A stretch of 64,000 nucleotides of DNA from positions 15,314,110 to 15,378,109 of the forward strand of contig NC_134030.1 in the NCBI RefSeq assembly GCF_964204645.1, in the 5' to 3' direction. The translations under genes were made by a program, and so were the position numbers. The first letter of the stretch is position 1. Every line of letters begins with the position of its first letter. The notes below the pieces were generated by a model. The model ran no database searches. It saw only the letters and a list, made by a program, of their open reading frames with translations, and had not been told where the DNA came from. This document shows positions 24,568-56,409 of this stretch, piece by piece. This DNA is from Tubulanus polymorphus. Its lineage: Eukaryota; Animalia; Nemertea.

Positions 24568-24760
24568 AGTAATAGGGGTAATGGGCTTTCAGATCAAAGG
24601 TCGAACGGTCGAGAAATTTTCCAAATGTGAAAATAACAATAATTTCTACTTGAATTAGTCGCGTACACACCTAATTCAAGTAGAAATTATTATTATTTTA
24701 CATTTGGAAAATTTCTCAACCTCTCAACCTTTAACCTGAAAGCCCATTACCCCTATTACT
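24568..24760. repeat. Terminal fold-back palindrome of copy A
   Basis: AGTAATAGGGGTAATGGGCTTTCAG...TTGAATTAG [about 12-nt loop] CTAATTCAAG...CTGAAAGCCCATTACCCCTATTACT. Confidence 0.95.
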
Positions 24761-25015
24761 CTTAAAATATTCATATATAAACATAATTTACATGAATAAC
24801 ATATAAATTGATAGATTATTCAATCTAAAAGTAACGAGTAATTAACGAGCTCTTATAGAATAGATATATAGATATATTTTAAACATATTTGAATATTTAT
24901 ATTTGTATGAGTTAGATTTTTAAACATTAAAAGTGTTAGTAAAGTGTGATTGAAATAATTCATATTTAAATCATTGAACTTCTAAAATCAATTTTAAAAA
25001 AAATTTAGTATTAAA

Positions 25016-28000
25016 ATGGAAGCGAATAAGTACTACTGTCCAACATGTAATATCAATATAGATAAATCCCAAAAATCAAGACACAATAAAACTAAAACAC
25101 ATTTAGAGAATAAATTGAAATTAGAATATAAAGATGATATATTAGAAACTAAATTAGAAGAATTAAAGAATGAAAAAGAAACATACAAATGTGATACATG
25201 TAATCAATCATTCAGTGATAAAAGATATTATAAAGAACATTTAAAATCTAAAAGTCATATTGGAAATATGAATAATGATATTTTAGGTGAAGATTATTTT
25301 GATAATGATAAAGATAATAAACATAAGACAATTAAAAGAATAAGAAATAAATTAAACAATAAAAGACCATACATGGAAGATGAAAGAAATTATATTAATT
25401 CATTAGATAATAAAAAAGATATAGAGATAACCGAAGCATTTAAAAGTGATATTGGTCCAGCAGCTATCGAGTTTAAATTTCATAAAGGAAAAACATTAGA
25501 AGAAAATAAAAAACATTTAGAAAATATGAAAAATATTATAAAAATAATTACAGATGTTGAATACCCTAAAATTAGTATATCTTCTAAAGTAAAGTTTATA
25601 AAATCTGAAGATAAACCAATATATAATATAAATTCTCATTCACAACATATTATATCTAAACAACATATAGATGATAAATAAGATAAATGTTATAATGAAG
25701 TAAAAACTAAAATAGAAGAGAAATATTTTGAAGGATCTGGTTTAATATTTGATGAGATAATATTTATGACTTTACATGTGTATAACACAAAATATAATCA
25801 GTTAACTAAATCAAAACCAATTGATGAAAATAATTTATCATATTATAAAGAACCAGATATTGAAGCATCGAGTTATATTAAACTACCATTTAAAACTAAT
25901 GCTGCAATAAATGTACAAAATTTTGATGATAAATGTTTTCTATGGGCTATAATTAGTTGCTTACATCCTGCAACTGATAATATTTGTAGATTAACTCATT
26001 ATAAACCATTTGAAAATAATTATAAGATAGATAAGTATCCTGTTAGAATTAAAAACATCCCAAAAATAGAAAGAGATAATAATATAAAGATAAATGTGTT
26101 TGATTTACTCAAATTACCAAATACAAAAGGTAACAATATAAAACATTATACATTAGAACCTTTATACCTATCAGAAGATTATGATTCAAATGATGTTATA
26201 GATATACTATATTATGAAAATCCTTATATGTGGATTTAACAAATCGATTTATTTTTTAAATCAGAAAATGATCACCATAAAATATATCTTTGTAGAAAAT
26301 GTTTACATAGATTCAGTAATGAAAGAACGTTATTAAATCATAAACAATTATGTGAAAATCATGATTATTGTAAATTAGTTTTACCAAATGAAAAAGATAA
26401 AATATTAGAATTCAAAAAATATGATTACAAAAATAAAGTACCATTTGTTATATATGGAGATTTTTAATCATTAAATAAAGAACTAACTGATCGAGATAGA
26501 AAAGAAATATATTATAAAAGAAAGAAATTAAATTCTAATGAAAATGATTTTTCAGATGAACCCCCAAAAAAACAAATACAATTAAAAAGATTCATCAATC
26601 AGCCGCAGCTTTCGGGTTATATATAAAATCTGATTATCCAGAACTAATTGAAAGTGAATATTATGATTATAGAAATGAAAATGTTATCAATCATTTTTGT
26701 GACTTATTAATTGAATATGAAATAAGATTTAGTAAATTATTGAATACAAATAAAGAAATAATTATGACAGAAGAAGATAAAGAAGAATTTGTGTTTGCAG
26801 GTAAATGTTATTATTGTGAAAAGATATTTAATTATAAAGATAAAAAAGTTAGAGACCATGATCATTTGAATGGAAAGTTTAGAGGCGCTGCACATGAGAA
26901 TTGTAACTTACAAGCCAAGAAAATCAATTTTGTACCAGTTATATTTCATAATCTATCAGGATATGACGCACATTCATTTATCAAACAGCTATGCCATAAA
27001 ATAGAAGAAATCAATAATGAAATAGAAAGATTGAATTCAAATAGATCAAAAGATAAAATACCAACTTATAAATTTAAAATGTTAGCTAAAACATCTGAGA
27101 ATTATATATCATTCCAATTTGGGTGTTTAAGATTTATAGATTCATATAGATTTTTAAATAGTTCATTAGATAACTTATCAAAATCATTAGTTGATGATGA
27201 ATTAAGAATATTAAAACAACACTATCCAAATAATGATGATTTCCAATTAATGAGATATAAAGGCGCAATTCCATATTCTTTCTATAAAAATCATAATGAT
27301 TTTAACATAACTGAATTATTAAAAGATGAAGTATATAATAGAACATTGAATATTTGGAATCATTTCAAAATAGAAAATCATGGGCAATTAGTAGATTTAT
27401 GTTTAAAATCAGATGTATTATTATTAACTGATATATTTGAAAGGTTTAGAGATGTAAACCTAAAATATTTTAACATTGATCCTTGTCATTGTTATTCTTG
27501 TCCAGGTTTAACATAGGATTGTGGTTTAAAATTTACAGATATAAAAATGGATTTGTTAACAAATATAGATCAATTATTATTATTTGAAAAATCTATAAGA
27601 GGAGGAGTTTCAGGTGTATTAGGCGATAGATATTTCAATGTAAATGATAACCCTGGATATAAGTTATTATATATAGATGCAAATAATTTGTATGGTTGGG
27701 CAATGATGGAACCACAACCTTATGGAGTATTTGAAATAAGTGAAGTTTTACACAATAAAATAATGACAAATTTGATTGGAAGAAAAGAATCCTAGATATT
27801 GCAGATGATTCAGATACTGGTTACTTCTTTGTTGTAGATTTAGAATATCCTGAACATATTAAATTTAAATCTAGAAATCTAGCATACTGTCCCGAACATA
27901 AAACTGTAACTCATGAAGAATTATCAAATTATCAAAAAAGAATTAAACCCGAAAATCATACAGGAAAGTTAATGGTAACTCAAGAAGATAAATATAATTA

Positions 28001-29003
28001 TGTAGTACATTATAGAATGTTAAAGTTTTATCTAAAACAAGGAATGATCCTAAAAAAAGTACATAGATATATTTCATTTAGTCAATCTAAATGGTTAGAA
28101 AAATATATAGATTTTAACACCAAACAGAGAACTGAAGCTAAAACTGATTTCGAGAAAGATTTCTTCAAGTTAATGAACAATGCATTCTATGGTAAGACTT
28201 GTGAAAATATTAGAAATAGAAATGATATTGAGTTAGTAAGTAATGGTAAAAGGATAAGGCATTTACAAACATACCCTAAATTTATAGGTAACAGAATATT
28301 TGATGAAAATTTAGCTGCAGTTAAGATGAGAAGAACATCAATGAAATTTAATAAACCAATTTATGTTGGTGCATCAGTTTTAGAAATAGCAAAGCTATTA
28401 ATGTATAAATTCTATTTTAATGTATTACAACCTCATTTTGGAGAAAAGCATATAGAAATCTTATATTTTGATACTGACAGTTACATATTAAAGATAAAAA
28501 CTAATAACATAACTGATGATTTAAAAACATTAAAACATCATTTTGATTTCAGCAATTATCCTAAAAATCATGAATTGTTCAGCAATGATAATAAAAAAGT
28601 TCCTGGTAAATTCAAAGATGAATTAGGTGGTGAAGAAATGATAGAGTTCATAGGTATTAGATCTAAAATGTATTCATATAGAACTAAAGAACATGAAGCT
28701 AAAAAGTTAAAAGGAATAACCAAAAGTATAGTAGAAAAGAATATTCATTTCAAAGATTACATCAATTGTATTTTCAATGAAGAAGTTAGAAAACATAAAA
28801 TGAGATGTTTAAGATCTGAAGATCATGAAATGTTCATTGAAGAGATAGAGAAGATAAGTCTAAACCCATTTGATGATAAAAGATATATTTTAGATGATGG
28901 AATTCATACAGTTGCTTATGGTTGCAATTTAGATGAATACTTAAAATTTAAAAGAGAAGAAACAAAAGAGAACGCGATAATGAAAAGAATTCTAACGTGT
29001 TAA
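25016..29003 (+). pseudogene. Protein-primed family B DNA polymerase, copy A (disrupted)
   Basis: Fragments carry IFHNLSGYD, LLYIDANNLYGWAM, KLMNNAFYGK, YFDTDS. Confidence 0.93.
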
Positions 29004-29032
29004 TCAAATTTTAATAGAAATATGTATTATAA

Positions 29033-29386
29033 ATGGAGAGTAAACAAGCAAACAGTGAGAACAACAAATTATTTCTAGATAGAATAAAAAATACTTCAAA
29101 TGTCAAATCAGTAGATTATAAATTTAAGAAGTTAAAAGAATTAATAATCCATAAGAAATATCTAATTACAAATATTGATACAATTACCAACAAATATGGA
29201 GATAAATTAGTTATACACTTAGAATATGAAGGATTAAAAGGAAATACATATACATTCAGAACATATTTACCAGATAGATTTCATAGATTATCAAGTGAAG
29301 ATCTAGAATAATTATGTTCTGGAGATTTCTATTTCGTATACAAAGGTAAGAATGAAAAAGGGTATCATGAAATAGATTTCGAATAA
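29033..29386 (+). pseudogene. Small conserved protein, copy A (premature stop at 29311)
   Basis: Homolog of 45073-45426. Confidence 0.8.
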
Positions 29387-29403
29387 GAAAATATGTAAAA
29401 TAA

Positions 29404-32400
29404 ATGGTAGAATTTAAAGAATACAGAATATTTGTTGATTCTAGAAAACTTACAAATTATAAATCTCATAATTTACTAGTACAATTAGATAGAGAATTCA
29501 AGAATTGTGTTGATTTAAAATCAGTTAATATAAGTTTATGTAATTCTTTTTATAATATATCGGATAAAACTTTTGAACAAAGAGGGTTTATGATTTATAT
29601 GCACGACGGTACGAGTAAAGGCAAATGCGACCATGTCGAACGTTATGACGTAGCGCGTCACTATTGGTTAAATTGATTGTTGCGCTAAAAATAGCTTCGA
29701 ATAGCTGGGATTCGAACCGAAACATATCTAAAACGAAATTATACGTGTTTTAGCGTTTAGCTATGTTCCAGTTTTCTCAACTTTCGCCATATTAATTTCC
29801 CAGGGCGGCGCTGAAAACCAGGAAGTAATTTTGTCATTTTGCTGGTTTTGGGCCTCCGAAATCTCAAAGTTTTGGAAGAATTTAAGGTAGAATAGACAGT
29901 TAAGTCATCCAAATACCCAATAGTATTAAAACCCATCTAAAAACGAATCGAATGATACCTTATATGTCTATATGGCTTTGGAAATAAGTGAGATATTCCC
30001 AGTTTCTCGTACTACTTCAAAACTAATTTTATGAGCTAGCGTTTTTACCTTATTAATTTTGATGACTTTTACCCGAATATAATTGGGTTCATTCGAAATC
30101 TGAAAACATACGTAATTAGATCTTGTTCTCCTGTCAATTTTGATATATAGAATGTGTACTCCCTATTACGAGTTGACTTAGAATTTGCGTCATCAAGTTA
30201 GGCCTAATCGTAAACTGCGGACCAAATTCGAAAATTATTGTAATTGGACTAGTGCCACAGTCTATAAAACACATACTGAGACTTATTGAATCCTGAAATG
30301 AAGGACTGTTATGAGAATAATCATTTGGCATAAGGAAATATTGAATTCGTTGCGTAATATGCCTAAACTAGGATTTTCCACGAGAAAGGCTTAAAAGCGC
30401 AGGCAATACCTCAATTTTGGCTCTGACACAGAAATTTGTGTGCAGGTCTTCGGGTGGTGGGGCCATTTTTGTAGGGGATTTCCCTGAAAATTCTGACTAA
30501 TTACTGCGCTGTCACAGTAAACAATTGATTAATACAGACTCGAAAATGTGTGTCTGTCCTGTCCAACAGTGCCGCACCCTTGTTGTGGAAACGGCTAAAG
30601 GGAAATAAATTTGATTGATCTGTTTCTGGTGGAAAACCAGCCTTTGGTTCATTTTCACGCATCTCACATCTAATGTCGAATTCAGTTTTGTTTGAAAGGA
30701 TATCAGGTTGTCTGGCTCAGTTAGTGTTTAGCGTAGGCCTACTAGGGACCTACTAGGGACTATGTATTGGAAGATTGCCAAAAATCTTTGAATTGTTAAT
30801 TTTATTTTAAAGATAATATTTTTTTTTTTTTATAGGATTCGTCAGTTATTTGTCAGACATAGCAGATATTTTATAACCGATTTTTCCCATTCAAATGTAA
30901 GTTGTATCAAGCAGAAATTTGCATTTTTTTTCATATTTATTTGTTTATAACATAATATTGACATTTGTTTATTTCAGGTAGATGGCAAGTAGCGTGCATT
31001 TGGTTCTGATGGTACCCATGGAATTCAGCAGTTGGCCTTCCATATCATATCAATACATTTTACAAATTAGTAACCGCAATTGCTCAAATGGCTTGTTGCA
31101 TTCAAACCTTCTGTCTCATTGTTTTAGGTTGGAAATAAAAGATTGATGTACTTTCAATTTGCTTCTTTTTCTGACTGCGATATATATTACCACGTCTACA
31201 GCTCGTTGAACCCGGGTTTCAAAGTATGCGGGTTCATATAAACCCAGCGTTTGCAGGGCTGCATCTACACTTAATTTAGCTCCAGTAACTGAATCCACAT
31301 CTGGTCTCAGTTTCACAAAAAAGTTAAACTCAAATTTTTGGTGTGATTGCTATTGGGTACTTCATGTTTTGAATGAGGACAACAATTCAAACTTAACCGT
31401 TTTAGGCTTAAACTTTTTCGTGAAACTGGGCCCTGTAGAGTTTTTCGTGAACATAGGTTCAATTCTCAATAGGTTATATAACTCCTTTTTCAAAAACCTG
31501 GCTTTTTGCATTCAACCCGTGTTTCGAGCTTAGTGTAGACGCATAACTTCGGTATAAGATGCAAGTGTAGACGAAGCTTCTCTTATTTTCTTCTGTTAGT
31601 AGGAATGAATAGGAATTCACGACTTCAAGAATACGCATAAGAAAAAGCTCTTTTATATGTTTAGATTTATTCTAACATCAAAGTGAAAAGATGGAAACAA
31701 GTAAAATCTTGACAATCCCCAGTTTAAAGATTCAACTTCATGCCCTTGTACTTGATATCTGCATCACCTAAAGATGAATAAAAGCAAACAAAAAAATCAA
31801 TTGATTGCTGAAAGTTAAATGATTCAATACAGCAGCGATGACTACAGATGATGTATTTACCATTCAGTCAGTGAGGCCTACTCACTTTTTATCATCTCCA
31901 ATCCTGTAAACCTGGCTTATCTAGTCACAAGTTGACCTCTAAATTAGCATTGTTCGGGTTCCTGTAACAGGCTGAACTCTCTAAAAAAAAAACATTGCCT
32001 TTGAAATAGAAAAATTGCATGTGGAAATTTATTTCAAGACTTCATAGTTATGTAAATAAATGACATGAATAGCCTACCGTCTTACGACTCTAAGAGGCCT
32101 AGGCCTACTTTTCGGGTCCATGGAAAAATCATTCGACACTAGTAGATAGGTGGTCTGTCAAAAATGTTTCCTAAAAATAAGATAAGTAGCAGTGAGTACA
32201 CTACCTACAGAATAGATTTTAGATCCTTCCACGCGCGTATCGCGAGACCGCGCGGTGTTGTTTATTTAGAGTATTATGACGTCATAACAACATTCGCGCA
32301 CCTAGATAGTTCACGTGTTTGGTGTCAAGGTCGCTGAGAGTTACGGCTCTGTACCTTCGTGTATGAGAAATAAAGATAAATGGTTTCATATATTTTTAAA

Positions 32401-32923
32401 ACCAGGATTATATAATTTAGAATCATTAGCGCAGGAAATTAATAGAAGAGCTCGGTTGAAAATCGGGGGTACTTCTGTATTTGAAATTAAATTCAATAAA
32501 ATTGATAGTACTAATAAAATAAGAATAAAGATTTCTAATGAACAACATACATTTATGGTAAACGAACCACTGGCTAAAATGTTAGGAATTAAACCGCTTA
32601 CAGTTACTGGAAACGCAGAAGGCATCTCAAATATAATACCTTTTACACACTTTTATATTTATTGCGATTTAATCGATCCTACAAAAACTTTCGAAGCAAC
32701 TAAAGAAACAATTTGTAGTTCTAGTATACTAAATATTTTACCGCTAAAAAATTTTAAACAATTTGGAACACAAATAAATTATAATTTAACAGAATGTGAT
32801 TTTAAACCTTGCATTCCTAAATTTAATAATTTTAAATTAGAAATAAGAAATCATAATGGATATTTAATTGATTTGAATAACTTTCCTGTGATATATGAAT
32901 TAGTTGTAAGATGTAGAGAGTAA
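29404..32923 (+). pseudogene. Minor capsid (penton) gene, copy A, split by a transposon
   Basis: The two halves rejoin to match 45441-46190. Confidence 0.85.
29602..32361. mobile_element. Non-autonomous DNA transposon, Chapaev-like (CAC...GTG ends, 4-bp TSD)
   Basis: TATG|CACGACGGTAC ... GTACCTTCGTG|TATG. The empty site GATTTATATGAGAAAT is present in copies B and C. Confidence 0.85.
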
Positions 32924-32939
32924 TTTTTTCATTATATAA

Positions 32940-35900
32940 ATGAATATAACTGTTGGACCGAGTATATGTGTTGGGTTTGATTTTAAACATGAGAAAAAAA
33001 TGAAATTTAACATTAATGATGTAATTATACATATTAAAAATATTGCATTTTCTAATGAAACAACATTTGAGTATGAAACAACAATAGATAAAGAAACTTT
33101 AAATGTAGAAAAGATTACTAATTTAATAAGAGAATCTTTAGGATTTTATGAATTAGATGAAGATTTTATCATAGATGATATTAAAAACATATTAACCAAA
33201 ATATATGATAATCATAAAAGTAGTAATGAAATAAATGTTGAATTAATCATCACTAAGATAACTAAATATTTTGAAGATAGTAATTTTTTTGATAAATAAA
33301 TGAGTGATAATAAGTGGATAATAACTGGATTATATAATGGAGCATTACTATCAGTTGGAACTGTTGGTTATTCAATGGTATTAAAAAAGGTATTTAAAAT
33401 GGGAAGTGTTAATGTTGATAGATTTGATATCAATGATATTTTAAAATTAACAGCAGTAACTAATCTAATTTAACAATTGATTATTTAGAAAAACAAAAAT
33501 ATATTCCTCCCATATAAATGTTTAATTATTTTACTAAATAAATGGCTTCTGCAGTTATAACTATTATAGGATCGGCAATTGTTAACGCTTTAGCATTTAC
33601 TGGGGACGGCTATTTATTTAAACATATTGATAAAAATGGTTCATTATCAGAACAAAAAAGACATAACTTAGTATTAGAGAAATACAATAAAGCAGCAGAA
33701 GAATATAGAGAAAAGAGACAAAACTATGTGGATTATATTAACAAGGAATTATATGATCAGAAGATTTCACACAGAGATTTTCAATCAGTTGATGATGCAA
33801 TGAGTTTATATAACGCGGTAACAAATAAAGAAAAATTACATCTACATAAACCTACAATATCAGATTATTATACCCCAAGTAATGAACAGAAGAAATATGA
33901 AATAATTTGGATTTTAGGGGGAACAGTTATTGTTATATTTGTTGCTTATAAATTTACTAATTAGTAATTTTTTTTGCTAAATAAATGGAAGATAAAGTTG
34001 ATAATATTGATATTATTCCTCATGATATCAGTAAAACTAAATTAAAAATATATTTAGAAAAACAAATATTAGAATTTGAAAGTGACTTAAAAGTTAAAAA
34101 GAAAAAATATTTAAAAAGTAAAATTATATATTATTTTATGATTAGTGGTTCGGTTACAATTAGTTCTGTAATAACACGTCTAGCAATATTCAGTCCATTA
34201 ACACCTTTAGCTATATCAATTGGTGTGTTAGGATTAAGTTCAAGTGTTTACCGGAATAAGTTCAAAATTAAATATAAAAAGTAATAAAGAAAAAAATTAA
34301 AACTAATATAAAAGAAATTAATAAATTAAAGAATACACTAGATTATATAATGAGTTTAAATGGTAATATTACAGTTGAAGAACAAGATAAATTATTAAAA
34401 GAATTAATAAATTATTAATTTTTTAATTGTATAAATGGCAGTTAGTTTTCCAAAAGCTTTCCAATATAATAAATCAATTAAATATAATATTCCTGCAATA
34501 GATTTCAATAAAGATATTACATATAGAAATGAAGTTTTAAATTCATAAATTGATTTATATATTTATGTTACTGAAAGTAATAATTTTCATGTAAAGATGG
34601 AAAATATATCCAATGTTTATGAAATTAATTTCAAAAATTTAAATGAGGCAAAACTATGGCTATTAAAATCTAATATGAAGTATTGGCAGAACCAATTAAA
34701 TTTTGCTGTTTATTGCGCAACAACAGGATGTGGAATTAGTTGGAATGATCATTTGAATAAACCAAGTTTACCATTGATGTTATCACTTTTTAGATTTCAT
34801 ACTTATTTTCAAATAAAATTAATATTAGATGAATTAGAATGTCCTTTACCAGGTTCAAAATATTTTAAAGAATTGAATAATAATGTTAATTTTTCTAAGT
34901 TTTATAAAATATGTAATGAATTTAATATTAATTCAAATAAAGATTTTAGAGCAGAAATTGGTACAATGGGTGGATTAGGAATATTATATACTACAGAATT
35001 TGGAAAAATAATGACAAATTCAGATATAAGAACACTAAATTGGAATAAATTACCAAAATATTATAATAATATTATACAACAACAAAATAATAATGGTTGG
35101 GTTAATTTCATTTTAGAAAATGGTGAAGGTTTTACAAAATCAGGTATACAAAGAATAAATCAATCTATTAGAACTTATTTGATATGTATTTTAGGTGCAC
35201 AAGTTGAAACAAGATCACCAATAGTTGGAAATGATAACACTTCATTCGATGAGCAGAAACAATTTAAAGTATTATTTGAAGATTCCATTCATAATGATAA
35301 AAATAGATCGATTCCAGAAAACATTGTAAGATATCAAAATTATTTAGATAAATCTCATGTAAGACTAAATTATTGTATAGGCCCTAATCCATAATAAATT
35401 ATTTCTAATGATTTAGTTTTAAAAATGGAAAATATAATTGGTTACAATAATCTAATTAAAACTGCAACAATAAATAATTCATTTGGAATAAATAATATAG
35501 ATAAAAAGATTATTACTGCTCCAAAATTAATGGAAGGTGAAAAAAATAAAAAACATATTCAATCAACAGAAACTAAAACTAAGAATATTAAATTAAATAA
35601 TGATTCTAAAATAAAAGATTACAATACTACAGAAAATATTAAAACTGATAATATTCAACATGAAATAATTAAACTAAATGATGATAATAAATCCCATGAA
35701 AATGCTAAATTAGCTTTTACTTGTATAGGAATTGTAATCGGAGGAATATTATATTTTAAATGTTAATTTTTTTATTATGTAAATGGAAGAAGGTGGAGAA
35801 GATTATGAAATTGGAGAAATGGGAAATAATAATGAAGGGTATATTGATGATGATTATAATGATGCCGAAACTAATATTGATGATGATAATTCATCAGCGC

Positions 35901-37214
35901 GTAATTCTAATTAAGCAGATAGTGGTTCTGAAGGCCCATCAACAGATGAATTTGATAGAAGAACTAGATCGAGAATAAATCCTGAAAATGAAAATCAAGG
36001 TTTATTAAAGCAAAATTTAGAATATAATGAATATATTTATAATTTCAAACATGTATTTGAAAAATCTGGATATAATATCAATGATAGAGGCGCCAGACTT
36101 TTAGTACAAGATTTAAAATATTTTGATGGTGAATATTATTATAATTTGAAAGATGATTATTATATTGATATATCTTATAAAAAACAAGACAAAATATTAG
36201 CGGAATCAACTTTGCTTAAGTTAGCTATCTAGAATTAACAGAATAAGAAATAGTAATGAAATAGAAGATGTAACACAAGAAGAAATTATCAAAAATGAAA
36301 GAGTATTTAAACAAAGAATTAATAAATTATTTGAAACAATCGATAATAATTTAGAACCAGAAACAACTTCTGGTAAACTTAAATCAAATAAAGTTCCAAT
36401 TGAAAAACTTTTACCAAATGGATTACTTGATGCAACAGATCAAGAATTAGAGGATTTAGATATATTTTCTGATAAAGCAATTAGAGAAATTATTAGTATA
36501 AGACTTGCATCTGATAAAATTGCACATGATAAAAGTATAAGAGTTTTTAAAATAAGAACTTTGGAAAAAGAATTAACTAATGCAAATAAAAAAATAGAAC
36601 AACTAAAGTCTGATTTAGATCATCAAGTAATTGATGAAATAGAATATAGGCAAAAAGAATTACGTTTAGAAAAAGAAAAAGATGATTTAGAATATAACAT
36701 AGAATTACAAAGAGAAGAAATTAAATTATTATTAAAATCATATGATTATAATATTAATAGATTAAAAGTTATTTTTAAAGAGTTAATAATAAAACCAGAT
36801 TCTGAAATATCATTGAATGATAGAATAAAATTATTATTTAAGTTAGAAGGAATAACAATTCTTTCAATTCTAACAGCTGTAACTATGTTATTCACAACAA
36901 TAGGTTTAGCAATATCAAATTCATTTAAATCTACACCTACACCCAATAAACCAGATAAACCCCCGAATGATAATAATTCTATACAAGATAAAGTTAAAGA
37001 TGGTTTAAAGAAATTAGCAAAATATTTATGGGAACTACCTAAAAAATCTGCTGCAGCATTGCCAGGAGTTATTGCATCAATTGTTGCTTTTATATTGAAA
37101 TCTGCAGGAAACATTATTAACTTTGCTGCTGAACATATTATTTTATTTTTAATTACAGTTGTAAGTGCAATTATTTTTGGGTCAGTGAATATGATATCAA
37201 AAGATATCAAGTAA
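32940..37214 (+). pseudogene. Block of six unknown, mostly membrane-protein genes, copy A (starts 32940, 33300, 33542, 33985, 34435, 35783)
   Basis: Colinear with 46207-50579. 32940 and 33542 are intact; the others are broken. Confidence 0.8.
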
Positions 37215-37244
37215 ACATAAATAATTAATTTTTTTGTTAAATAA

Positions 37245-37619
37245 ATGAGTGGGAGTTATATCAATCCTAAGAATCATAGAATATCTAATGCTATTAAAGC
37301 AGAAAGATCGCATCATATAATTACTCATAACCCTTCTAATATTAATCCTGATGAAACTTTATATGTTAGAATTCCTCGATTAACACAAAATACTTTTTAT
37401 GTTCCAAATAGTATTTATTTATCAGCCGATATAAAAGTAACCGGTAATAATAATAATTATGTTGTTGATAATGTTGGAAGATATTTGATTAAAAAATTAA
37501 CAATAAAGATTGGTCCAGAAACGGTCTTCTCATTAGATGATTATAATTTATTTATGCATTATAAAGATTTATGGTTAACTAATGAAAATAGAAATAATAT
37601 GATATTTCAAGGAATCCAA
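37245..37619 (+). pseudogene. Major capsid protein 5' fragment, copy A
   Basis: Matches 50646-51024, then homology jumps to the 52868-52960 region. Confidence 0.8.
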
Positions 37620-37731
37620 ATACATAGGTATATAATACATAGGTATATAAATGGTTATTTTATAAATTTATATTCATAGGGAAATTGAAACCTAAGTAAT
37701 AATTTTGAACCTTTATTATTCTTTAATTAAT

Positions 37732-40603
37732 AAGATGTAAGAAATTATATTAATTCATTAGATAATAAAAAAGATATAGAGATAACCGAAGCATTTAAAA
37801 GTGATATTGGCCCAGCAGCTATTGAGTTTAAATTTCATAAAGGAAAAACATTAGAAGAAAATAAAAAACATTTAGAAAATATGAAAAATATTATAAAAAT
37901 AATTACAGATGTTGAATACCCTAAAATAAGTATATCTTCTAAAGTTAAATTCATAAAATCTGAAGATAAACCAATATATAATATAAATTCTCATTCACAA
38001 CATATTATATCTAATCGTTTTAATGAAGTAAAAACTAAAATAGAAGAGAAATATTTTGAAGGATCTGGTTTAATATTTGATGAAATAATATTTATGACTT
38101 TACATGTGTATAACACAAAATATAATAAGTTAACTAAATCAAAACCAATTGATGAAAATAATGTATCATATTATAAAGAACCAGATATTGAAGCATCGAG
38201 TTATATTAAACTACCATTTAAAACTATTGCTGTAATAAATGTACAAAATGAAGTTGATAAATGTTTTCTATGGACAATTATAAGTTGCTTACATCCAACA
38301 GAAGATATTACACATACTTTTAGATTAACACATTATAAACCATTTGAAAATAATTATAAGATAGATAAGTATCCTGTTAGAATTAAAAATATCCCAAAAA
38401 TAGAAAGAGATTTAAGAATAAATGTATTTGATTTAATCAAATTGCCAAATACAAAAGGTAACAATATAAAACATTATACATTAGAACCTTTATACCTATC
38501 AAAAGATTATGATTCAAATGATGTTATAGTTATACTATATTATGAGAATCATTATATGTGGATTAAAAGAATTGATTTATTTTTTAAATCAGAAAATGAT
38601 TTTGATAATAAAATATATCTATGTAGAAAATGTTTACATAAATTCAGAACTGAGAGTGCATTATTAAATCATAAAAAATTATGTGAAAATCATGATTATT
38701 GTAAATTAGTTTTACCAAATGAAAAGGATAAAATATTAGAATTAAAAAAATATGATTACAAAAATAAAGTTCCATTTGTCATATATGGAGATTTTGAATC
38801 ATTAAATAAAGAATTAACTGATCAAGATAGAAAAGAAATATATTATAAAAGAAAGAAATTAAATTCTAATGAAAATGATTTTTCAGATGAACCACCAAAA
38901 ACAAATACAATTAAAAAGATTCATCAATCAGCTGCAGCTTTCGGGTTATATATAAAATCTGGTTATCCAGAACTAATTGAAAGTGAATATTATCATTATA
39001 GAAATGAAAATGTTATCAATCATTGTTGTGACTTATTAATTGAATATGAAATAAGATTTAGTAAATTATTGAATACAAATAAAGAAATTATAATGACAGA
39101 AGAAGATAAAGAAGCATTTGTGTTTACAGGTAAATGTTATTATTGTGAAAAGATATTTAATTATAAAGATAAACAAGAAAATTAATTTTTTAAAATTATT
39201 TGACGCCTGCGAAAAAATGTAGAATTTCTGGGGTAAGCTAATGTGGAATTGCAAATTTGAAATTGAAGTTTTAAGAAATTTGGGAAATTATGAGATTTGG
39301 CGATTGGGTAGATGATACAGGTCTTCGACTCTAGTAGTGGTTTAATTTTTTTTATTGAAAATTCTCAATAATTGGATCGTGTGGCCTAGCCAGCCGGCCC
39401 GGGCCACGGTATTGGCTGTCACTCGATATCCTAGAGTCTTGAGTCTGGGTTTAAGTAGACATTGTCATATAAAATAATATGTTTGTGTTATTCTGTATGA
39501 ACTACCCGTTTGTCATGTATGTTGTATTTTCTTATTTTAAAATTTATATTTATTGAATTTGGGAATTTTATCCCGGAATTTCAATGGAATAAGGATCAAT
39601 AAAGAATTGAATTGAATTGTCACCTAATACACATGCCATCAGAGGACGCGGAGCCGTATATGACAGCTATGCTATTATAAATTGCTAATCTCACGAAACC
39701 TGCATACCCCTAATATCGAACATATTTTCTAAAACATTATATGTTTCCTTATGTTTACACATTTTCATATCGACCACTTGTAGCCGCCGATGAAATTCAC
39801 GCCGGCCCTACACAGATCGTAGATAGCTTCGTCATTCCGCCAGCATCCCCATGTCAGGGTCTGACTTTTGAATCAGACTTCCGCATCGTGTATACATCCG
39901 CCATTTAACCGAATAATCTGATTTACTTATCATTTCTATTTATGCCTGCCGCTTCTGATATAGTCATACATCCATTACTATTACAATACGTCTTCTAATG
40001 ATATTCAATGCAATATAACATTTCGACGTTCAAATATAGGTCATTATATAATCACAGGAAGCCATTCTACATCTATGTCAATTATATTTTGCCAAGTAGC
40101 TTAATTGTGTACACATAGACCTGTGACGTTTTGCATATCGATTTACGGTTGTCGTTTGTAAAATGACGCTGAATGGCTAACATTGTTTAGGTTTCATAAT
40201 GGTAACGTTTTAAAAGGCGTCAAAAAAGTAAGAGACCATGATCATTTGAACGGAAAGTTTAGAGGCACTGCACACGAGAATTGTAACTTACAAGCTAAGA
40301 CAATTAACTTTGCACCAGTTATATTTCATAATCTATCAGGATATGATGCTCATTTATTTATCAAACAGTTATGCCATTAAATAGAAGAAATTAATAATGA
40401 AATAGAAAGATTAAATTCAAATAGATCAAAAGATAAAATACCAACTTATACATTTAAAATGTTAGCTAGAACATCTGAGAATTATATATCATTCCAATTT
40501 GGTTGCCTAAGATTTATAGATTCATATAGATTTTTAAATAGTTCATTAGATAACTTATCAAAATCATTAGTTGATGATGAATTAAAAATATTAAAGCAAC
40601 ACT
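37732..40603 (+). mobile_element. Polinton copy B, left portion (5'-truncated pPolB)
   Basis: pPolB homology restarts at AAGATGTAAGAAATTAT. Interrupted at about 39172 and at 40603. Confidence 0.9.
39172..40224 (-). mobile_element. Helentron/HINE-like insertion in pPolB of copy B
   Basis: Inserted in the A6 run of GATAAAAAAGTAAGA with no clear TSD. Asymmetric sub-TIRs TTTGACGCCT (39199) / AGGCGTCAAA (40215), stem-loop TAATTTT-TT-AAAATTA, minus-strand end CTTGTT. Confidence 0.75.
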
Positions 40604-41127
40604 AGTAATAGGGGTAATGGGCTTTCATACCAAAGGTCGAACGGTCGAGCCCATTAAAAAACAAAACATTAAAAGTAATTAAAAACTATAATATATTTTC
40701 ATAACCGCGTGCATTTTATATTAAAACTAAATATTTATTCTAAGATATCAATAATTTACAATACACAAATTCATATAATCAAATATATTCAAATAATAAT
40801 GATTATTCTATTATTCAACTGAAATGCACGCGGTTATGAAAATATATTATAGTTTTAAATTACTTTTAATGTTTTGTTATTAATGAGCTCGACCATTCAA
40901 CCTTTGATATGAAAGCCCATTACCCCTATTACTCTTAAAATATTCATATAAATGAATAACATTTAAATCATTGAACTTCTAAAATCAATTTTAATAAAAA
41001 ATTTATTATTAAAATGGAAGCAAATAAGTACTACTGTCCAACATGTAATATCAACATAGATAAATCCCAAAAAGCAAGACACAATAAAACTAAAACACAT
41101 TTAGAGAATAAATTGAAACTAGAATAT
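40604..41127 (+). repeat. Left TIR of copy C (40604-40933 self-palindromic)
   Basis: Reverse complement of 58422-58946 with a few differences. Confidence 0.96.
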
Positions 41128-44100
41128 AAAGATGATATATTAGAAACTAAATTAGATGAATTAAAGAATGCAAAAGAAACATACAAATGTGATACATGTA
41201 ATCAATCATTCAGTGATAAAAGATATTATAAAGAACATTTAAAATCTAAAAGTCATATTGGAAATATGAATAATGATATTTTAGGTGAAGATTATTTTGA
41301 TAATGATAAAGATAATAAACATAAGACAATTAAAAAATAAATTAAACAATAAAAGACCATACATGGAAGATGTAAGAAATTATATTAATTCATTAGATAA
41401 TAAAAAAGATATAGAGATAACCGAAGCATTTAAAAGTGATATTGGTCCAGCAGCTATCGAGTTTAAATTTCATAAAGGAAAAACATTAGAAGAAAATAAA
41501 AACATTTAGAAAATATGAAAAATATTATAAAAATAATTACTGATGTTGAATATCCTAAAATAAGTATATCAGTTAAAGTAAAGTTTATAAAATCTGAAGA
41601 TAAACCAATATATAATATAAATTCTCATTCACAACAAATTATTTCAAAACAACATGTAGATGATAAATTAGATAAATGTTATAATGAAGTAAAAACTAAA
41701 ATAGAAGAGAAATATTTTGAAGGATCTGGTTTAATATTTGACGAAATAATATTTATGACTTTACATGTTTATAACACAAAATATAATAAGTTAACTAAAT
41801 CAAAACCAATCGATGAAAATAATGTATCATATTATAAAGAACCAGATATTGAAGCATCGAGTTATATCAAACTACCATTTAAAACTAATGCTGTTATAAA
41901 CGTACAAAATTTTGATGATAAATGTTTTCTATGGGCTATAATAAGTTGTTTACATCCAACAGAAGATATTACACATAGTTTTAGATTAACTCATTATAAA
42001 CCATTTGAAAATAATTATAAGATAGATAAGTATCCTGTTAGAATTAAAAACATCCCAAAAATAGAAAGAGATAATAATATAAAGATTAATGTATTTGATT
42101 TAATCAAATTACCAAATACAAAAGGTAACAATATAAAACATTATACATTAGAACCTTTATATCTATCAAAAGATTATGATTCAAACGATGTTATAGATAT
42201 ACTATATTATGAGAATCATTATATGTGGATTAAACAAATCGATTTATTTTTCAAATCAGAAAATGATCACCATAAAATATATCTTTGTAGAAAATGTTTA
42301 CATAGATTCAGTAATGAAAGAACGTTATTAAATCATAAACAATTATGTGAAAATCATGATTATTGTAAATCAGTTTTACCAAATGAAAAAGATAAAATAT
42401 TAGAATTCAAAAAATATGATTACAAAAATAAAGTACCATTTGTAATATATGGAGATTTTGAATCATTAAATAAAGAATTAACTGATCAAGATAGAAAAGA
42501 TATATATTATAAAAGAAAGAAATTAAATTCTAATGAAAATGATTTTTCAGATGAACCACCAAAAACAAATACTATTAAAAAGATTCATCAATCAGCTGCA
42601 GCTTTCGGGTTATATATTAAATCTGATTATCCAGAACTAATTGAAAGTGAATATTATAATTATAGAAATGAAAATGTTATCAATCATTTTTGTGACTTAT
42701 TAATTGAATATGAAATAAAATTTAATGAAAAGTTAAATAAAAATATAGAAATTATAATGACAGAAGAAGATAAAGAAGCATTTGCGTTTGCAGATAAATG
42801 TTATTATTGTGAAAAGATATTTGATTATAAAGATAAAAAAGTAAGAGACCATGATCATTTGAATGGAAAGTTTAGAGGCGCTGCACATGAGAATTGTAAC
42901 TTACAAGCTAAGAAAATTAACTTTGTACCAGTTATATTTCATAATCTATCAGGATATGATGCACATTTATTCATCAAACAGTTATGCTATAAAATAGAAG
43001 AAATCAATAATGAAATAGAAAGATTAAATTCAAATAGATCAAAAGATAAAATACCAACTTATAAATTTAGAATGTTAGCTTAAACATCTGAGAATTATAT
43101 ATCATTCCAATTTGGTTGCCTAAGATTTATAGATTCATATAGATTTTTAAATAGTTCATTAGATAACTTATCAAAATCATTAGTTGATGATGAATTGAAA
43201 ATATTAAAGCAACACTACCCAAATAATGATGATTTTCAATTAATGAGATATAAAGGAGCAATTCCATATTCTTTCTATAAAAATCATAATGATTTTAACA
43301 TAACTGAATTATTAAAAGAACAATTCTATGATGAATTAAAAAATGAATATGTTAAAGATGAAGTCTATAATAGAACATTGAATATTTGGAATCATTTCAA
43401 AATGAAAAATCATGGGCAATTAGTAGATTTATATTTAAAATCAGATGTATTATTATTAACCGATATATTCGAAAGGTTTAGAGATGTAAACCTAAAATAT
43501 TTTAATATTGATCCTTGTCATTGTTATTCATCACCAGGATTGACATGGGATTGTGGATTAAAATTTACAGATATAAAAATGGATTTGTTAACAAATATAG
43601 ATCAATTATTATTATTTGAAAAATCTATAAGAGGAGGAGTTTCAGGTGTATTAGGTGATAGATATTTCAATGTAAATGATAATCCTGGATATAAGTTATT
43701 ATATATAGATGCAAATAATTTGTATGGTTGGGCAATGATGGAACCACAACCTTATGGAGTATTTGAATTAACTGAAGTTTTACAGAATGAAAATAATGAT
43801 AAATTTGATTGGAAGAAAAGAATTCTAGATATTGCAGATGATTCAGATACTGGTTACTTCTTTGTTGTAGATTTAGAATATCCTGAACATATTAAATTTA
43901 AATCTAGAAATCTAGCATACTGTCCCGAACATAAAACTGTAACTCATGAAGAATTATCAAATTACCAAAAAAGAATTAAACCTGAAAATCATATTCATAC
44001 AGAAAAGTTAATGGTAACTCAAGAAGATAAATATAATTATGTAGTACATTATAGAATGTTAAAGTTTTATTTGAATCAAGGAATGATTCTAAAAAAAAGT

Positions 44101-45043
44101 ACATAGATATATTTCGTTTAGTCAATCTAAGTGGTTAGAAAAATATATAGATTTTAACACCAAACAGAGAACTGAAGCTAGAACTGATTTCGAAAAAGAT
44201 TTCTTCAAGTTAATGAATAATGCATTCTATGGTAAGACTTGTGAAAATATTAGAAATAGAAATGATATTGAGTTAGTTAGTAATGGTAAAAGAATTAGAC
44301 ATTTACAAACATAGCCTAAGTTCATTGGTAACAGAATATTTGATGAAAATTTAGCCGCAGTTAAGATGAGAAGAACATCAATGAAATTTAATAAACCAAT
44401 CTATGTTGGCGCTTCAGTTTTAGAATTATCAAAATTACTAATGTATGAATTCTATTATAATGTATTACAACCACTTTTTGGAGAAAAACATATAGAAATA
44501 TTATATTTTGATACTGACAGTTACATATTAAAGATAAAAACTGATAACATAACTGATGATTTAAAAACATTAAAACATCATTTTGATTTTAGTAACCGTC
44601 CTAAAGATCATGAATTGTTTAGCAATGATAATAAAAAAGTTCCCGATAAATTCGAAGATGATTTAGGCGGTGAAGAAATGATTGAATTCATAGGTATTCG
44701 ATCTAAAATGTATTCATATAAAACTAAAGAACATGAAGCTAAAAAGTTAAAAGGAATAACCAAAAGTGTAGTAGAAAAGAATATTCATTTCAAAGATTAC
44801 ATCAATTGTATATTCAATGAAGAAGTTAGAAAACATAAAATGAGATGTTTAAGATCTGAAGATCATGAAATGTTTATTGAAGAGATAGAAAAGATAAGTC
44901 TAAACCCATTTGATGATAAAAGATATATTTTAGATGATGGAATTCATACAGTTGCTTATGGTTGCAATTCAGATGAATACTTAAAATTTAAAAGAGAAGA
45001 AACAAAAGAGAACGAGATAATGAAAAGAATTCTAACGTGTTAA
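41014..45043 (+). pseudogene. Protein-primed DNA polymerase B polyprotein, copy C (C2H2 fingers, TP-like region, vOTU-like protease, exonuclease with EndoVII-like insert, polymerase)
   Basis: CPTC..H..H fingers; KCFLWAI...ENHY; VIYGDFES; CYYC..RDHDHLNGKFRGAAHENCN; motifs A/B/C. Broken near 41335, 41500, 43081, 44095 and 44311. Confidence 0.95.
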
Positions 45044-45072
45044 TCAAATTTTAATAAAAATATGTTATTAAA

Positions 45073-45426
45073 ATGGAGAGTAAACAAGCACACAGTGAGA
45101 ACAACAAATTATTTCTAGATAGAATTAAAGATATAACAAATGTAAAATCTGTAGATCATAAATTCAAAAAGTTGACAGAATTAACAATCCATAAGAAATA
45201 TCTAATTACAAATATTGATACAGTTGCTAACAAACATGGAGATAAATTAGTTATACACTTAGAATATGAAGGATTAAAAGGAAATACATATAAATTCAGA
45301 ACATATTTACCGGATAGATTTCATAGATTATCAGGTGAAGATTTAGAAGAATTATGTTCTGGAGATTTCTATTTCGTATACAAAGGTAAGAATGAAAAAG
45401 GGCACCATGAAATAGATTTCGAATAA
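45073..45426 (+). CDS. 117-aa protein, possibly OB-fold ssDNA-binding
   Basis: Intact, conserved in three copies, directly after pPolB, beta-rich pattern. Function is inferred. Confidence 0.55.
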   Translation: MESKQAHSENNKLFLDRIKDITNVKSVDHKFKKLTELTIHKKYLITNIDTVANKHGDKLVIHLEYEGLKGNTYKFRTYLPDRFHRLSGEDLEELCSGDFYFVYKGKNEKGHHEIDFE

Positions 45427-45440
45427 AATATGTAAAATAA

Positions 45441-46190
45441 ATGGTGGAATTAAAAGAATACAGAATATTTGTTGATTCTAGAAGACTTACAAATTATAAA
45501 TCACATAATTTACTAGTACAATTAGAATTTAAGAATTGTGTTGATTTAAAGTTAGTTAATATAAGTTTATGTAATTCTTTTTACAATGTATCGGATAAAA
45601 CTTTTGAACATAGAGGGTTTATGATTTATATGAGAAATAAAGATAAATGGTTTCATATATTTTTAAAACCAGGATTATATAATTTAGAATCATTAGCGCT
45701 GGAAATTAATAGAAGAGCTCGGTTGAAAATCGGGGGCACTTCTGTATTTGAAATTAAATTTAATAAAATTGATAGTACTAATAAAATTAGAATAAAGATA
45801 TCTAATGAACAACATAAATTTATGGTAAACAAACCACTGGCTAAAATGTTAGGAATTAAACCGCTTACAGTTACTGGAAATGCAGAAGGCAGCTCAAATA
45901 TAATACCTTTTACACACTTTTATATTTATTGCAATTTAATCGAGCCTACAAAAACTTTCGAAGCAACTAAAGAAACAATTTGTAATTCTAGTATACTAAA
46001 TATTTTACCGCTAAAAAATGTTAAACAATTTGGAACTCAAATAAATTATAATTTAACAGAATGTGATTTCAAACCTTGTATTCCAAAATTTAATAATTTT
46101 AAGTTAGAAATAAGAAATCACAATGGATATTTAATTGATTTGAATAACTTTCCTGTGATATATGAATTAATTATAAGATGTAGAGAGTAA
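45441..46190 (+). CDS. Minor capsid protein (penton, single jelly-roll)
   Basis: IFVDSR..., PGLYNLESL..EIN, FYIYCNLI, LEIRNHNGYLIDLNNFPVIYELIIR pattern typical of Polinton/virophage pentons. Confidence 0.8.
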   Translation: MVELKEYRIFVDSRRLTNYKSHNLLVQLEFKNCVDLKLVNISLCNSFYNVSDKTFEHRGFMIYMRNKDKWFHIFLKPGLYNLESLALEINRRARLKIGGTSVFEIKFNKIDSTNKIRIKISNEQHKFMVNKPLAKMLGIKPLTVTGNAEGSSNIIPFTHFYIYCNLIEPTKTFEATKETICNSSILNILPLKNVKQFGTQINYNLTECDFKPCIPKFNNFKLEIRNHNGYLIDLNNFPVIYELIIRCRE

Positions 46191-46206
46191 TTTTTTCATT
46201 ATATAA

Positions 46207-46564
46207 ATGAATATAACTGTTGGACCGAGTATATGTTTTGGGTTTGATTTTAAACATGAGAAATAAATGAAATTTAACATTAATGATGTAATTACACATA
46301 TCAAAAATATTGCATTTTCTAATGAAACAACATTTGAGTATGAAACAACAATAGATAAAGAAACTTTAAATGTAGAAAAGATTACTAATTTAATTAGAGA
46401 ATCTTTAAGATTTTATGAATTAGATGAAGATTTTATCATCGATGATATTAAAAAAAATAATAATTGAAATATATACAAATGAAACTAGTAATGAAATAAA
46501 TGTTGAATTAATCATAAATAAGATAACTAAATATTTTGATGATAGTAATTTTTTGGATAAATAA
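46207..46564 (+). pseudogene. Unknown 118-aa protein (broken here; intact at 32940 and 63283)
   Basis: Comparison between copies. Confidence 0.75.
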
Positions 46565-46786
46565 ATGAGTGATAATAAGTGGATAATAACTGGATTATAT
46601 AACGGCGCATTACTATCAGTTGGAACTGTTGGTTATTCAATGGTATTAAAAAAAGTATTCAAAATGGGAAGTGTTAATGTTGATAGATTTGATATAAATG
46701 ATATTTTAAAATTAACATTAGCAGTTACTTTATCTAATTTAACTATTGATTATTTGGAAAAACAAAAATATATTCCTCCCATATAA
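46565..46786 (+). CDS. 73-aa hydrophobic protein
   Basis: Also intact at 63640; two hydrophobic stretches. Confidence 0.75.
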   Translation: MSDNKWIITGLYNGALLSVGTVGYSMVLKKVFKMGSVNVDRFDINDILKLTLAVTLSNLTIDYLEKQKYIPPI

Positions 46787-46811
46787 ATGCATAATTTTTT
46801 ATGCTAAATAA

Positions 46812-47234
46812 ATGGCTTCTGCAATTATAACTATTATAGGATCGGCAATTGTTAACGCTTTAGCATTTACTGGTGGTGGATATTTATTTAAACATATTGA
46901 TAAAAATAGTTCATTAGGAGAACAAAGAAGACATAACTTAGCGTTAGAGAAATATAATAAAGCTGCAGAAGAATATAGAGAAAAGAGACAAAACTATATG
47001 GATTACATCAATAAAGAATTATATGATCAGAAGATTTCACATAGAGATTTTCAATCAGTTGATGATGCAATGAGTTTATATAACGCGGTAACCAATAAAG
47101 AAAAATTACATCTATACAAACCTAAATTATCAGATTATTATACCCCAAGTAAAGAACAACAGAAATATGAAATAATATGGATTTTAGGTGGAACTGTTAT
47201 TGTTATATTTGTTGCTTATAAATTTACTAATTAG
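46812..47234 (+). CDS. 140-aa predicted membrane protein
   Basis: Hydrophobic N-terminus and C-terminal IIWILGGTVIVIFVAY; intact in three copies. Confidence 0.8.
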   Translation: MASAIITIIGSAIVNALAFTGGGYLFKHIDKNSSLGEQRRHNLALEKYNKAAEEYREKRQNYMDYINKELYDQKISHRDFQSVDDAMSLYNAVTNKEKLHLYKPKLSDYYTPSKEQQKYEIIWILGGTVIVIFVAYKFTN

Positions 47235-47254
47235 TAATTTTTTTTGCTAAATAA

Positions 47255-47689
47255 ATGGAAGATAAAGTTGATAGTATTGATATTATTCCTCATGATATAA
47301 ATAAAACTAAATTAAAAACATATTTAGAAAAACAAATATTAGAATTTGAAAATGACTTAAAAGTTAAAAAGAAAAAATATTTAAAAAGTAAAATTATATA
47401 TTATTTGATTATAAGTGGTTCGGTTACAATTAGTTCTGTAATAACATTTTTAGCAATATTCAGCCCATTAACACCTTTAGCTATATCAATTGGTGTGTTA
47501 GGATTAAGTTCAAGTGTTTTAACTGGTATAAGTTCAAAATTAAATATAAAAAGTAATAAAGAAAAAATTAAAACTAATATAAAAGAAATTAATAAATTAA
47601 AGAACACACTAGATTATATCATAAGTTTAAATGGTCATATAACAGTTGAAGAACAAGATAAATTATTAAAAGAATTAATAAATTATTAA
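47255..47689 (+). CDS. 144-aa predicted two-TM protein
   Basis: Central hydrophobic hairpin flanked by Lys-rich helices. Confidence 0.75.
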   Translation: MEDKVDSIDIIPHDINKTKLKTYLEKQILEFENDLKVKKKKYLKSKIIYYLIISGSVTISSVITFLAIFSPLTPLAISIGVLGLSSSVLTGISSKLNIKSNKEKIKTNIKEINKLKNTLDYIISLNGHITVEEQDKLLKELINY

Positions 47690-47705
47690 TTTTTTAATTA
47701 TATAA

Positions 47706-49094: not shown

Positions 49095-49110
49095 TTTTTT
49101 TGTTATGTAA

Positions 49111-50579: not shown

Positions 50580-50645
50580 CCATGATATCAAAAGATATCA
50601 AGTAAACCTGATCAAAAATAAATAATTAATTTTTTTGTTAAATAA

Positions 50646-51893: not shown

Positions 51894-51925
51894 AATTTTA
51901 ACTTTAATAAAGATATATATAATAA

Positions 51926-52756: not shown

Positions 52757-52888
52757 TAATAAAGGTTGAAAATTGTATAAACTAATAGTAAATAAAAAAG
52801 GGGGTTTTAAGTATTTAAGGTATCTAATAGGGTATCAGGTATTAGGGTATCAGGTATTAGGGTATCTAATACATAGTCATATAAATAG

Positions 52889-53500
52889 TTATTTTATAAA
52901 TTTATATTCATAGGGAAATTGTAGTCTCAGTAATAATTTTGAACCTTTATTATTCTTTAATTTATTCATTTATTCATCATGTAATTCAGTAGGTATAATT
53001 TGATTTTCTTCCAATGATTGTTGCATAGATTTTTTATATTTGTTATAAAATAAAACTAGAAATCTAATGTTTTCTCTAAAGTCTTTAACAATTGTATCAT
53101 ATTTTTGATTTAAAACCCAAGTTGTTATCCCAAAATGTCTCCCAGAGAAAGCTAAATAACATAACTCACTTTCTCTCACTTTTGAATCATGTAAATTTGC
53201 GCAATCATCTACAATGAATAATGTATTTGATCCTTTATAAGTATCAATTGCTATTTTTATACAATTATCTAAATTTTCTTTTACTGTTTTAGGATCTAAT
53301 ATAATAAACTTTTTCATCTTAACTATATCTCTATTATATGTTTTATTCATTTCATAAGTAGGACAAAATAATATTATATTATCAAAATGATTCTTATAAA
53401 TAGTTTCTAACAAGTCTAATATGAAATGTGTTTTACCACAATTGGTTACTCCAGTAACTAACATATTATGCGGTTCAAATATAAATAAATCTTTATTCAT
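52889..53500 (-). pseudogene. A32/FtsK-like genome-packaging ATPase (premature stop at 52970)
   Basis: Walker A GVTNCGKT, Walker B FIVDD, GRHFGITTWVLNQ motif. The frame continues past the stop to 52889. Confidence 0.9.
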
Positions 53501-56332: not shown

Positions 56333-56409
56333 ACAATATTAAAACAGATATATACAATCGAGATTACATTTTTGATATCTATATTACAAAGACCTTCAGT
56401 GTTATAATT

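Follow-up and report, generated by a model that had tools for sequence, protein, structure and literature searches.

The terminal inverted repeats (TIRs) of a Maverick element in the nemertean Tubulanus polymorphus begin with a fold-back, in which a constant 46-bp frame encloses a palindromic interior that appears to be exchangeable. We studied these ends in a window of 64,000 nucleotides (contig NC_134030.1), the whole stretch of DNA analysed, to which all coordinates refer, and in raw reads. The anatomy stands on solid ground: the fold-back is a real, inherited and multi-copy feature of the Maverick ends. While the outer frame is constant, the interiors come in at least two unrelated, repeated versions, and probably in three, a pattern suggesting that it is the fold, not the sequence, that matters. 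Its function we infer: the chances appear about even that a fold-back of the 3′ strand aids terminal-protein-primed re-initiation or end repair, with the interior being swapped as a block by fold-back copying.

Three Maverick copies in one window

Host DNA of about 36% G+C fills positions 1–24567 of the window and is followed by A+T-rich DNA consisting of three related copies of one element (Table 1). Copy C is a Maverick/Polinton: it has 524-bp TIRs (left 40604–41127, right 58422–58946, differing at 8 sites) with a 6-bp AACACT duplication, and codes for a protein-primed PolB (pPolB), an integrase and a packaging ATPase. The long TIRs, target duplication of 5–8 bp and length of 13–25 kb by which Mavericks/Polintons are recognized are all found in it. 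It lies within the polymerase gene of copy B and is cleanly flanked there by the 6-bp duplication. The coding DNA of A and C, which a first-pass annotation of the sequence had described as highly similar, is indeed so, with 4.1–5.1% substitutions.

Copy B starts without a left end directly after the truncation of copy A (junction 37731/37732). A and B differ by 1.0% at 32362–34085/61375–63092 and by 4.5–5.2% in other parts, and the closer tract points to recombination or conversion between copies. Copy B also has an internal duplication of about 0.9 kb (61752–62663 and 63092–64000, 93% alike). The insertions that interrupt A (2.8 kb) and B (1.0 kb, 39181–40221) have a higher G+C than the element and are probably host transposons. 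The first 114 bases of the polymerase gene lie inside the TIR (41014–41127, 58422–58535), and hence the right end of C carries a copy of that start. Within the host DNA, positions 18685–19934 form a 1.25-kb, 92% inverted repeat that spans an ORF with a GIY-YIG match and whose ends match 1543–1796.

Table 1. Features of the Maverick copies and their terminal fold-backs in the 64-kb window.
Feature	Coordinates	Strand	Remarks
Maverick copy A, left part only	24568..37731	+	Interrupted at 29602-32361; self-alignment, Pfam
Maverick copy B, without left end, runs off the window	37732..64000	+	Self-alignment
Interruptions of copy B	39181-40221, plus copy C		
Maverick copy C, both ends present	40604..58946	+	18.3 kb (18,343 bp); genes partly broken
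Left target-site duplication of C	40598..40603	+	AACACT
Right target-site duplication of C	58947..58952	+	AACACT
A-type terminal fold-back, left end of copy A	24568..24760	.	193 bp, 90-bp arms, 12-nt loop
Outer 46-bp arm of A, common with C	24568..24613	+	44/46
Outer side of mismatch patch in A	24593..24610	+	TIR positions 26-43; CpG at 35, 39, 43
A-type interior, palindromic stem and loop	24614..24714	.	Loop 24659-24670
Inner 46-bp arm of A	24715..24760	-	Bears the inner side of the patch
Inner side of patch in A	24718-24735		6 differences from outer arm, 0 CpG left
Long spacer of A behind hairpin, absent from C	24778..24952	+	Most reads skip it
C-type terminal fold-back, left	40604..40933	.	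330 bp; outer part of TIR 40604-41127
C-type terminal fold-back, right	58616..58946	.	331 bp; outer part of TIR 58422-58946
Protein-primed PolB gene of C	41014..45426	+	Five ORF pieces
A32-like packaging ATPase	52970..53500	-	PF04665, E 5.7e-12
Retroviral-type integrase with chromodomain	53493..54578	-	PF00665, E 1.3e-9

Terminal fold-backs with a constant frame

A terminal 23-mer occurs six times in the window (0 of 100 shuffles gave six matches), and its copies form three inward-facing pairs, at 24568/24760, 40604/40933 and 58616/58946. The predicted fold has −71.8 kcal/mol in A (z −19.2; 0 of 200 shuffles as good), −106 kcal/mol at the left end of C (z −22.4) and −126.1 kcal/mol at the right end of C (z −27.8). 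Folding confirms a difference already noted from the letters, namely between the short hairpin of A with its small loop and the longer one of C. The latter measures 330/331 bp at the two ends and has arms of 113 bp around a loop of some 104 nt that is not palindromic. In each case the TIR extends further inward than the hairpin, which forms just its outer part. The strand with the terminal 3′ end is predicted to pair to its last base, and at all three ends it folds 6–10 kcal/mol better than the other strand.

The layout of the ends is modular: a 46-bp arm, a variable palindromic interior, a second 46-bp arm, 17 shared bases, a variable spacer and then conserved DNA leading into the polymerase start. 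The first 24 bp are identical across all six arms. The first-pass annotation had held that A and C share only about 46 bp before passing into different stems; the outer arms do match at 44 of their first 46 positions and then diverge, and 12 tests over pairs and orientations of the A and C interiors and spacers showed no homology, the best score being reached by 20 of 500 shuffles. The spacer behind the hairpin is about 175 bp longer in A than in C. No donor for either interior was found in the window or in the body of C. The reported contrast between an outer motif and a mismatched inner arm is likewise borne out, each of the three outer arms carrying GGTCGAACGGTCGAG and each of the three inner arms being mismatched to it. 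The hairpin has the same orientation at each of the three ends (patch-intact arm outside), an agreement that has a chance of 1 in 4.

Joint evolution of the arms outside a mismatch patch

Outside a patch at TIR positions 26–43, the two arms of a hairpin differ at 2 of 72 sites in A, at 0 of 95 at the right end of C and at 4 of 95 at its left end, the last four being private to that end. For A and the right end of C together, this amounts to 2 of 167 sites, which is below the 5% divergence between A and C (p = 0.009). Moreover, the two arms of A agree on G at position 25, and those of C agree on T. Thus, the few differences outside the patch and the pattern at position 25 indicate that the arms evolve together. 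Within the patch, there are six differences in A and three in C, the same three at both ends of C. As these two ends carry the same hairpin, in the same orientation and with the same three mismatches, these features predate the insertion of C. The p values for the patch (0.0006 in A, 0.003 at the right and 0.08 at the left end of C) are optimistic, its limits having been set after seeing the data.

CpG dinucleotides are poorly kept between A and C (35 of 89, versus 95 of 154 for GpC); in the C stem they are intact on all four arms, whereas the patch has lost them only on the inner arms. Judging from these counts, CpG decay can explain much of the patch. All nine independent arm transitions give G–T pairs on the strand with the terminal 3′ end (p = 0.004), a bias that deamination-type change (C>T, A>G) of a single strand would account for just as well. 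The outer arms differ at 2 of 46 sites versus 4–6.5% in the body of the element, and an identical 15-mer would be expected in them 36–46% of the time; the outer motif is conserved no better than the body, and selection on outer binding sites is at most a possibility. The inner arms differ at 6 of 46 sites, a borderline value (p = 0.03–0.08 against background, 0.27 against the outer arms).

Multiple copies of the A-type interior in reads

We mapped the raw-read run X6, which may come from another individual, to positions 24000–25200 (about 12 in 100 of the run read; 10,773 reads placed), along with three of the four contig sets of the same organism label. Summed depth reached 2435 and 1465 for the two shared arms and about 1600 for the downstream TIR, compared with 595–753 for the A interior. 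This gives about 2.4 shared arms per downstream TIR, and hence most ends carry the fold-back; by read depth, A-like loops make up 39–47% of the ends. The first-pass annotation had staked its reading on the A-type hairpin occurring more than once, and the A-like interior turns out to be multi-copy and varied. Among the best 40 of 303 variant entries, differences within it were found at 24664 (170 of 454 reads), 24723 (151 of 284) and 24669 (814 of 820), the last being a position where most reads differ from the window's own letter. Such common variants imply many diverged A-like copies. Given a genome of at least 219 million letters (X2 contigs), a single copy would have less than 9-fold depth and A-like interiors would number at least about 65.

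Departures of reads from the reference were counted among the best 24 of 494 entries. At least 1612 reads leave at 24613 and at least 584 at 24724 toward a C-type stem (matched by eye), at least 351 turn off at 24699 into sequence resembling neither A nor C, and at least 1391 run into varied flanks at 24568. The departures at 24699 probably represent a third type sharing the centre of A. In two runs, contigs depart from the window at 24548 and extend into sequence lacking the element; in another two, contigs span the loop. The host flank belongs to a repeat as well (depth 106–572), and the flanks are pooled over hairpin types. Two observations on the third type were discarded as proof that both of its arms had changed: a 53-read opposite-strand joint (24628/24724) and a symmetric contig at 24630–24698 are both expected from the mapping and the graph topology of any palindrome.

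The spacer at 24778–24952 is variable in the reads, with about 700 of them skipping 184–205 bases and the depth falling to 184; spacer and hairpin type may reassort.

The first-pass annotation had further proposed that selection acts on the fold-back and on the outer binding sites. The former part is consistent with the fold-back at all three window ends and with the ratio of arms to TIRs in the reads; the latter is not supported, as the outer sites are at background. However, the matched arms would need no pair-by-pair selection, because fold-back copying would make both in one step. Its suggestion that hairpin variants define origin types finds no support, and copies A and B appear to recombine.

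Genes of the element

The polymerase gene is fragmented in the window copies. In C, the domain order of its product comprises zinc fingers, a predicted terminal-protein domain, a vOTU domain, an exonuclease with an EndoVII-like insert, and the polymerase; exonuclease and polymerase motifs are present and the PolB family is matched in Pfam (PF03175, E 8.7e-8). Across 32 aligned proteins, the vOTU Cys/His and the Cys, Asp, His and Asn residues of the EndoVII-like insert are kept in all, and 30 have a Ser in the loop that joins the last helix of the N-terminal domain to its last strand. This Ser is part of a conserved Ser-Gly loop, and its position fits the structure model. Residues 1–89 of the model resemble Y-family little-finger domains (Z 4.9–5.5, all <8), residues 103–244 a viral OTU (Z up to 7.5, <8) and the insert a beta-beta-alpha-Me nuclease (Z 6.3); Foldseek returned no match at E ≤ 0.001. 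Together with the kept residues, these weak fold matches suggest that the polymerase keeps terminal-protein and vOTU features, with protein priming predicted. A little-finger-type plus vOTU architecture has been described for Polinton terminal proteins, and nuclease inserts in such polymerases are regarded as homing-endonuclease invasions (PMC11161782). The EndoVII-like domain was considered as a hairpin-specific partner and rejected: it is widespread in this polymerase group, with PF02945 present in many of at least 120 matches, and occurs also where no hairpin is seen.

The integrase has 1845 homologues at E ≤ 1e-20, and for both integrase and polymerase the named relatives belong to invertebrate animals and a lancelet. 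A weak Capsid_N match in Pfam (37245–37679, E 0.0011) is below the cut-off, 50889–51893 has no match in Pfam or PDB sequences, and no protease match was obtained among the ORFs scanned. The Pfam scan of 40 ORFs of 100 aa or more recovered no family of HUH/Rep nickases with an SF3 helicase at E ≤ 0.01.

Relatives outside the window

The end motif has no exact match in viral contigs; six single matches in metagenome contigs come with no partner arm and no further similarity and were put down to chance. Single-protein scans of viral contigs yielded no close relative, and alignment scans returned 67 loci (5 + 34 + 28), all of them distant (27–53% in the best segment). When self-aligned, none of the 67 displayed a target-site-bounded terminal hairpin; most are short or without ends, and three (L047, L060 and L068) have apparent ends and no hairpin. 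Short-read contigs tend to break at palindromes. As few of the loci reach true termini, and such contigs tend to break where a hairpin would lie, this absence is weak evidence; going by these loci, Mavericks of this polymerase group can apparently do without such a hairpin.

The palindromes of L011, L035, L045 and L059 were inspected and are not comparable ends, and an 11-letter likeness to the outer motif at the start of contig L064 led nowhere. The palindrome of L059 (4657–4840; 184 bp, 75%) lies between divergent genes just upstream of pPolB and has AGTAGT-type motifs pointing outward; it is not a bounded end. Thirty-four contigs in prokaryote genome bins (L012–L045), 17 of them from one bin, encode Maverick-type integrases; these are likely eukaryotic DNA in prokaryote bins.

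A proposed role for the fold-back and its alternatives

In protein-primed replicons, strand-displacement copying from the ends frees single strands. Such copying would leave a free single-stranded intermediate of the Maverick, whose 3′ end can pair with the inner arm because that arm ends in the same terminal motif. The folded 3′ end would become double-stranded without the far TIR, and might serve terminal-protein re-initiation or the repair of a shortened end. A 3′ end that snaps back and copies itself would make both matched arms of a new interior in one step; any interior that folds would be tolerated, and hence several types could spread. Priming would stay protein-based, and the end would be copied without inversion, preserving the asymmetry of outer and inner arms. 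Non-inverting copying fits both the single orientation of the three ends and the persistence of the patch, which may mostly be decay tolerated on the inner arm and possibly also marks that arm as “not the end”. All of the data come from integrated copies, and no free or single-stranded form was seen among them.

It is conceivable, though on the unlikely side, that the fold is a functionless by-product: the palindrome would have arisen once by snap-back, its interior would occasionally have been re-made by the same error, the TIRs would have been copied from each other, and the patch would reflect CpG decay or deamination. The background-level conservation of the outer arms, the strong CpG decay and the three relatives with apparent ends and no hairpin are what one would expect in this case, and the accessible part of a preprint offers accidental annealing as an alternative for elements of Halocafeteria (bioRxiv 10.64898/2026.07.28.741278). 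However, the reads suggest that nearly all ends keep the fold-back across at least two unrelated interiors, the arms stay matched beyond the divergence of A and C, and the patch has lost CpGs only on its inner side while the C stem retains its CpGs on both arms. Long palindromes are usually unstable, so that retention is not the default. A single template switch in copy A after its insertion is a far more remote prospect and is largely refuted. The A interior does occur once in the window, where the right end of A is missing, and co-amplification with the repetitive host flank is conceivable; yet the depth and common variants of A-like interiors, with most reads departing from the window's letter at 24669, together with the contigs that pass 24548 without the element or span the loop, stand against a lone event.

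Self-priming of the parvovirus or poxvirus kind, in which the 3′ hairpin itself primes, an EndoVII-like nuclease nicks or resolves the closed end, and the patch is akin to the MVM bubble or the mismatches of the vaccinia telomere, we regard as unlikely. It would accord with the predicted pairing of the 3′-terminal strand to its last base, with the fully kept residues and nuclease-like fold of the insert, with the account of the vaccinia hairpin as one whose structure rather than sequence matters and whose mismatches are essential (PMC8956199), and with the same model having been proposed for the Halocafeteria elements (bioRxiv 10.64898/2026.07.28.741278). Nevertheless, the terminal-protein and vOTU features are kept, the insert is common in the polymerase group irrespective of hairpins, the 40 ORFs scanned include no HUH/Rep gene, and none of the three ends is inverted, the last being a weak point given its 1 in 4 chance. 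A doubtful, more far-reaching reading would have hairpin-ended animal Mavericks combine a terminal protein with a parvovirus-like 3′ fold-back, the patch marking the true end, the EndoVII-like domain resolving the fold, and the interior being a module that turns over faster than the genes. If it were true, the Polinton replication intermediate, never yet seen, would gain a concrete and testable structure.

Aid to protein-primed ends by the 3′ fold-back, the reading that we prefer, can be set against these alternatives in the genome itself. A high-copy family with a lasting fold-back and a changing interior provides a natural experiment: hundreds of ends in one assembly, scored for orientation, arm symmetry and age, would tell protein priming, self-priming and by-product apart without bench work. 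To our knowledge, the exit of a Maverick from the chromosome, the copying of its ends and its re-entry have never been observed. The removal of the terminal protein before integration is likewise described as unexplained (PMC11161782).

Comparison with known systems

Animal Mavericks/Polintons are 13–25 kb long, with TIRs of 100–1500 bp, a 6-bp target duplication and an AGT-type end (PMC8097293; bioRxiv 10.1101/2023.08.22.554363; PMC11161782). The element presented here resembles them in these respects and in its pPolB with predicted terminal-protein and vOTU domains, its integrase and its packaging ATPase, and differs from those described in that the outer 190–330 bp of its TIR fold back on themselves almost perfectly and have exchangeable interiors. 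Neither “hairpin” nor “palindrom” is used in the main text of the Maverick surveys of nematodes and vertebrates (PMC8097293; bioRxiv 10.1101/2023.08.22.554363), and the accessible parts of PMC11296320, bioRxiv 10.1101/2022.05.25.493380 (protein hairpins only) and bioRxiv 10.64898/2026.10.13.758929 hold nothing relevant to hairpin ends. In the literature outside Repbase, the 2006–2007 founding papers and supplements, no pPolB Maverick with exchangeable hairpin interiors came to our notice, and we met with terminal palindromes of this group only in the accessible part of the Halocafeteria preprint.

Among more distant systems, the telomeres of Streptomyces unite priming by a terminal protein with a 3′ strand that folds, and their truncated ends are repaired on the fold-back (PMC5449611). 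The folded 3′ terminal strand with terminal-protein priming that we propose would be analogous; the bacterial telomeres differ, going by that source, in having several short conserved palindromes, dedicated Tap/Tpg proteins and an internal origin, and we claim no sequence relation. Parvovirus and vaccinia telomeres share with the Maverick ends a long terminal hairpin with fixed mismatches (PMC1185569; PMC8956199), and in vaccinia the native hairpin can be exchanged for a foreign one (PMC8956199). As these sources present them, they are self-primed or covalently closed and need NS1/Rep or a resolvase, whereas the Maverick shows no HUH gene among the ORFs scanned and no flip/flop in the three ends seen.

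The closest parallel is offered by the protist Halocafeteria seosinensis, whose virophages (subtypes 1, 2, 5 and 6) and PLV subtype 4 have terminal palindromes, for which both hairpin priming and an accidental origin have been proposed (bioRxiv 10.64898/2026.07.28.741278). There, as here, the palindrome lies inside the TIR beside the target duplication. In the part of the preprint available, it measures 52 nt in the figured case and is found preferentially in elements with non-pPolB replication genes, whereas the fold-backs of the nemertean element measure 193–331 bp and accompany a pPolB; several interior types and an inherited mismatch patch are seen here only, none being described for the Halocafeteria elements in that part. 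Thus, terminal palindromes are extended from protist elements mostly without pPolB to a standard pPolB Maverick.
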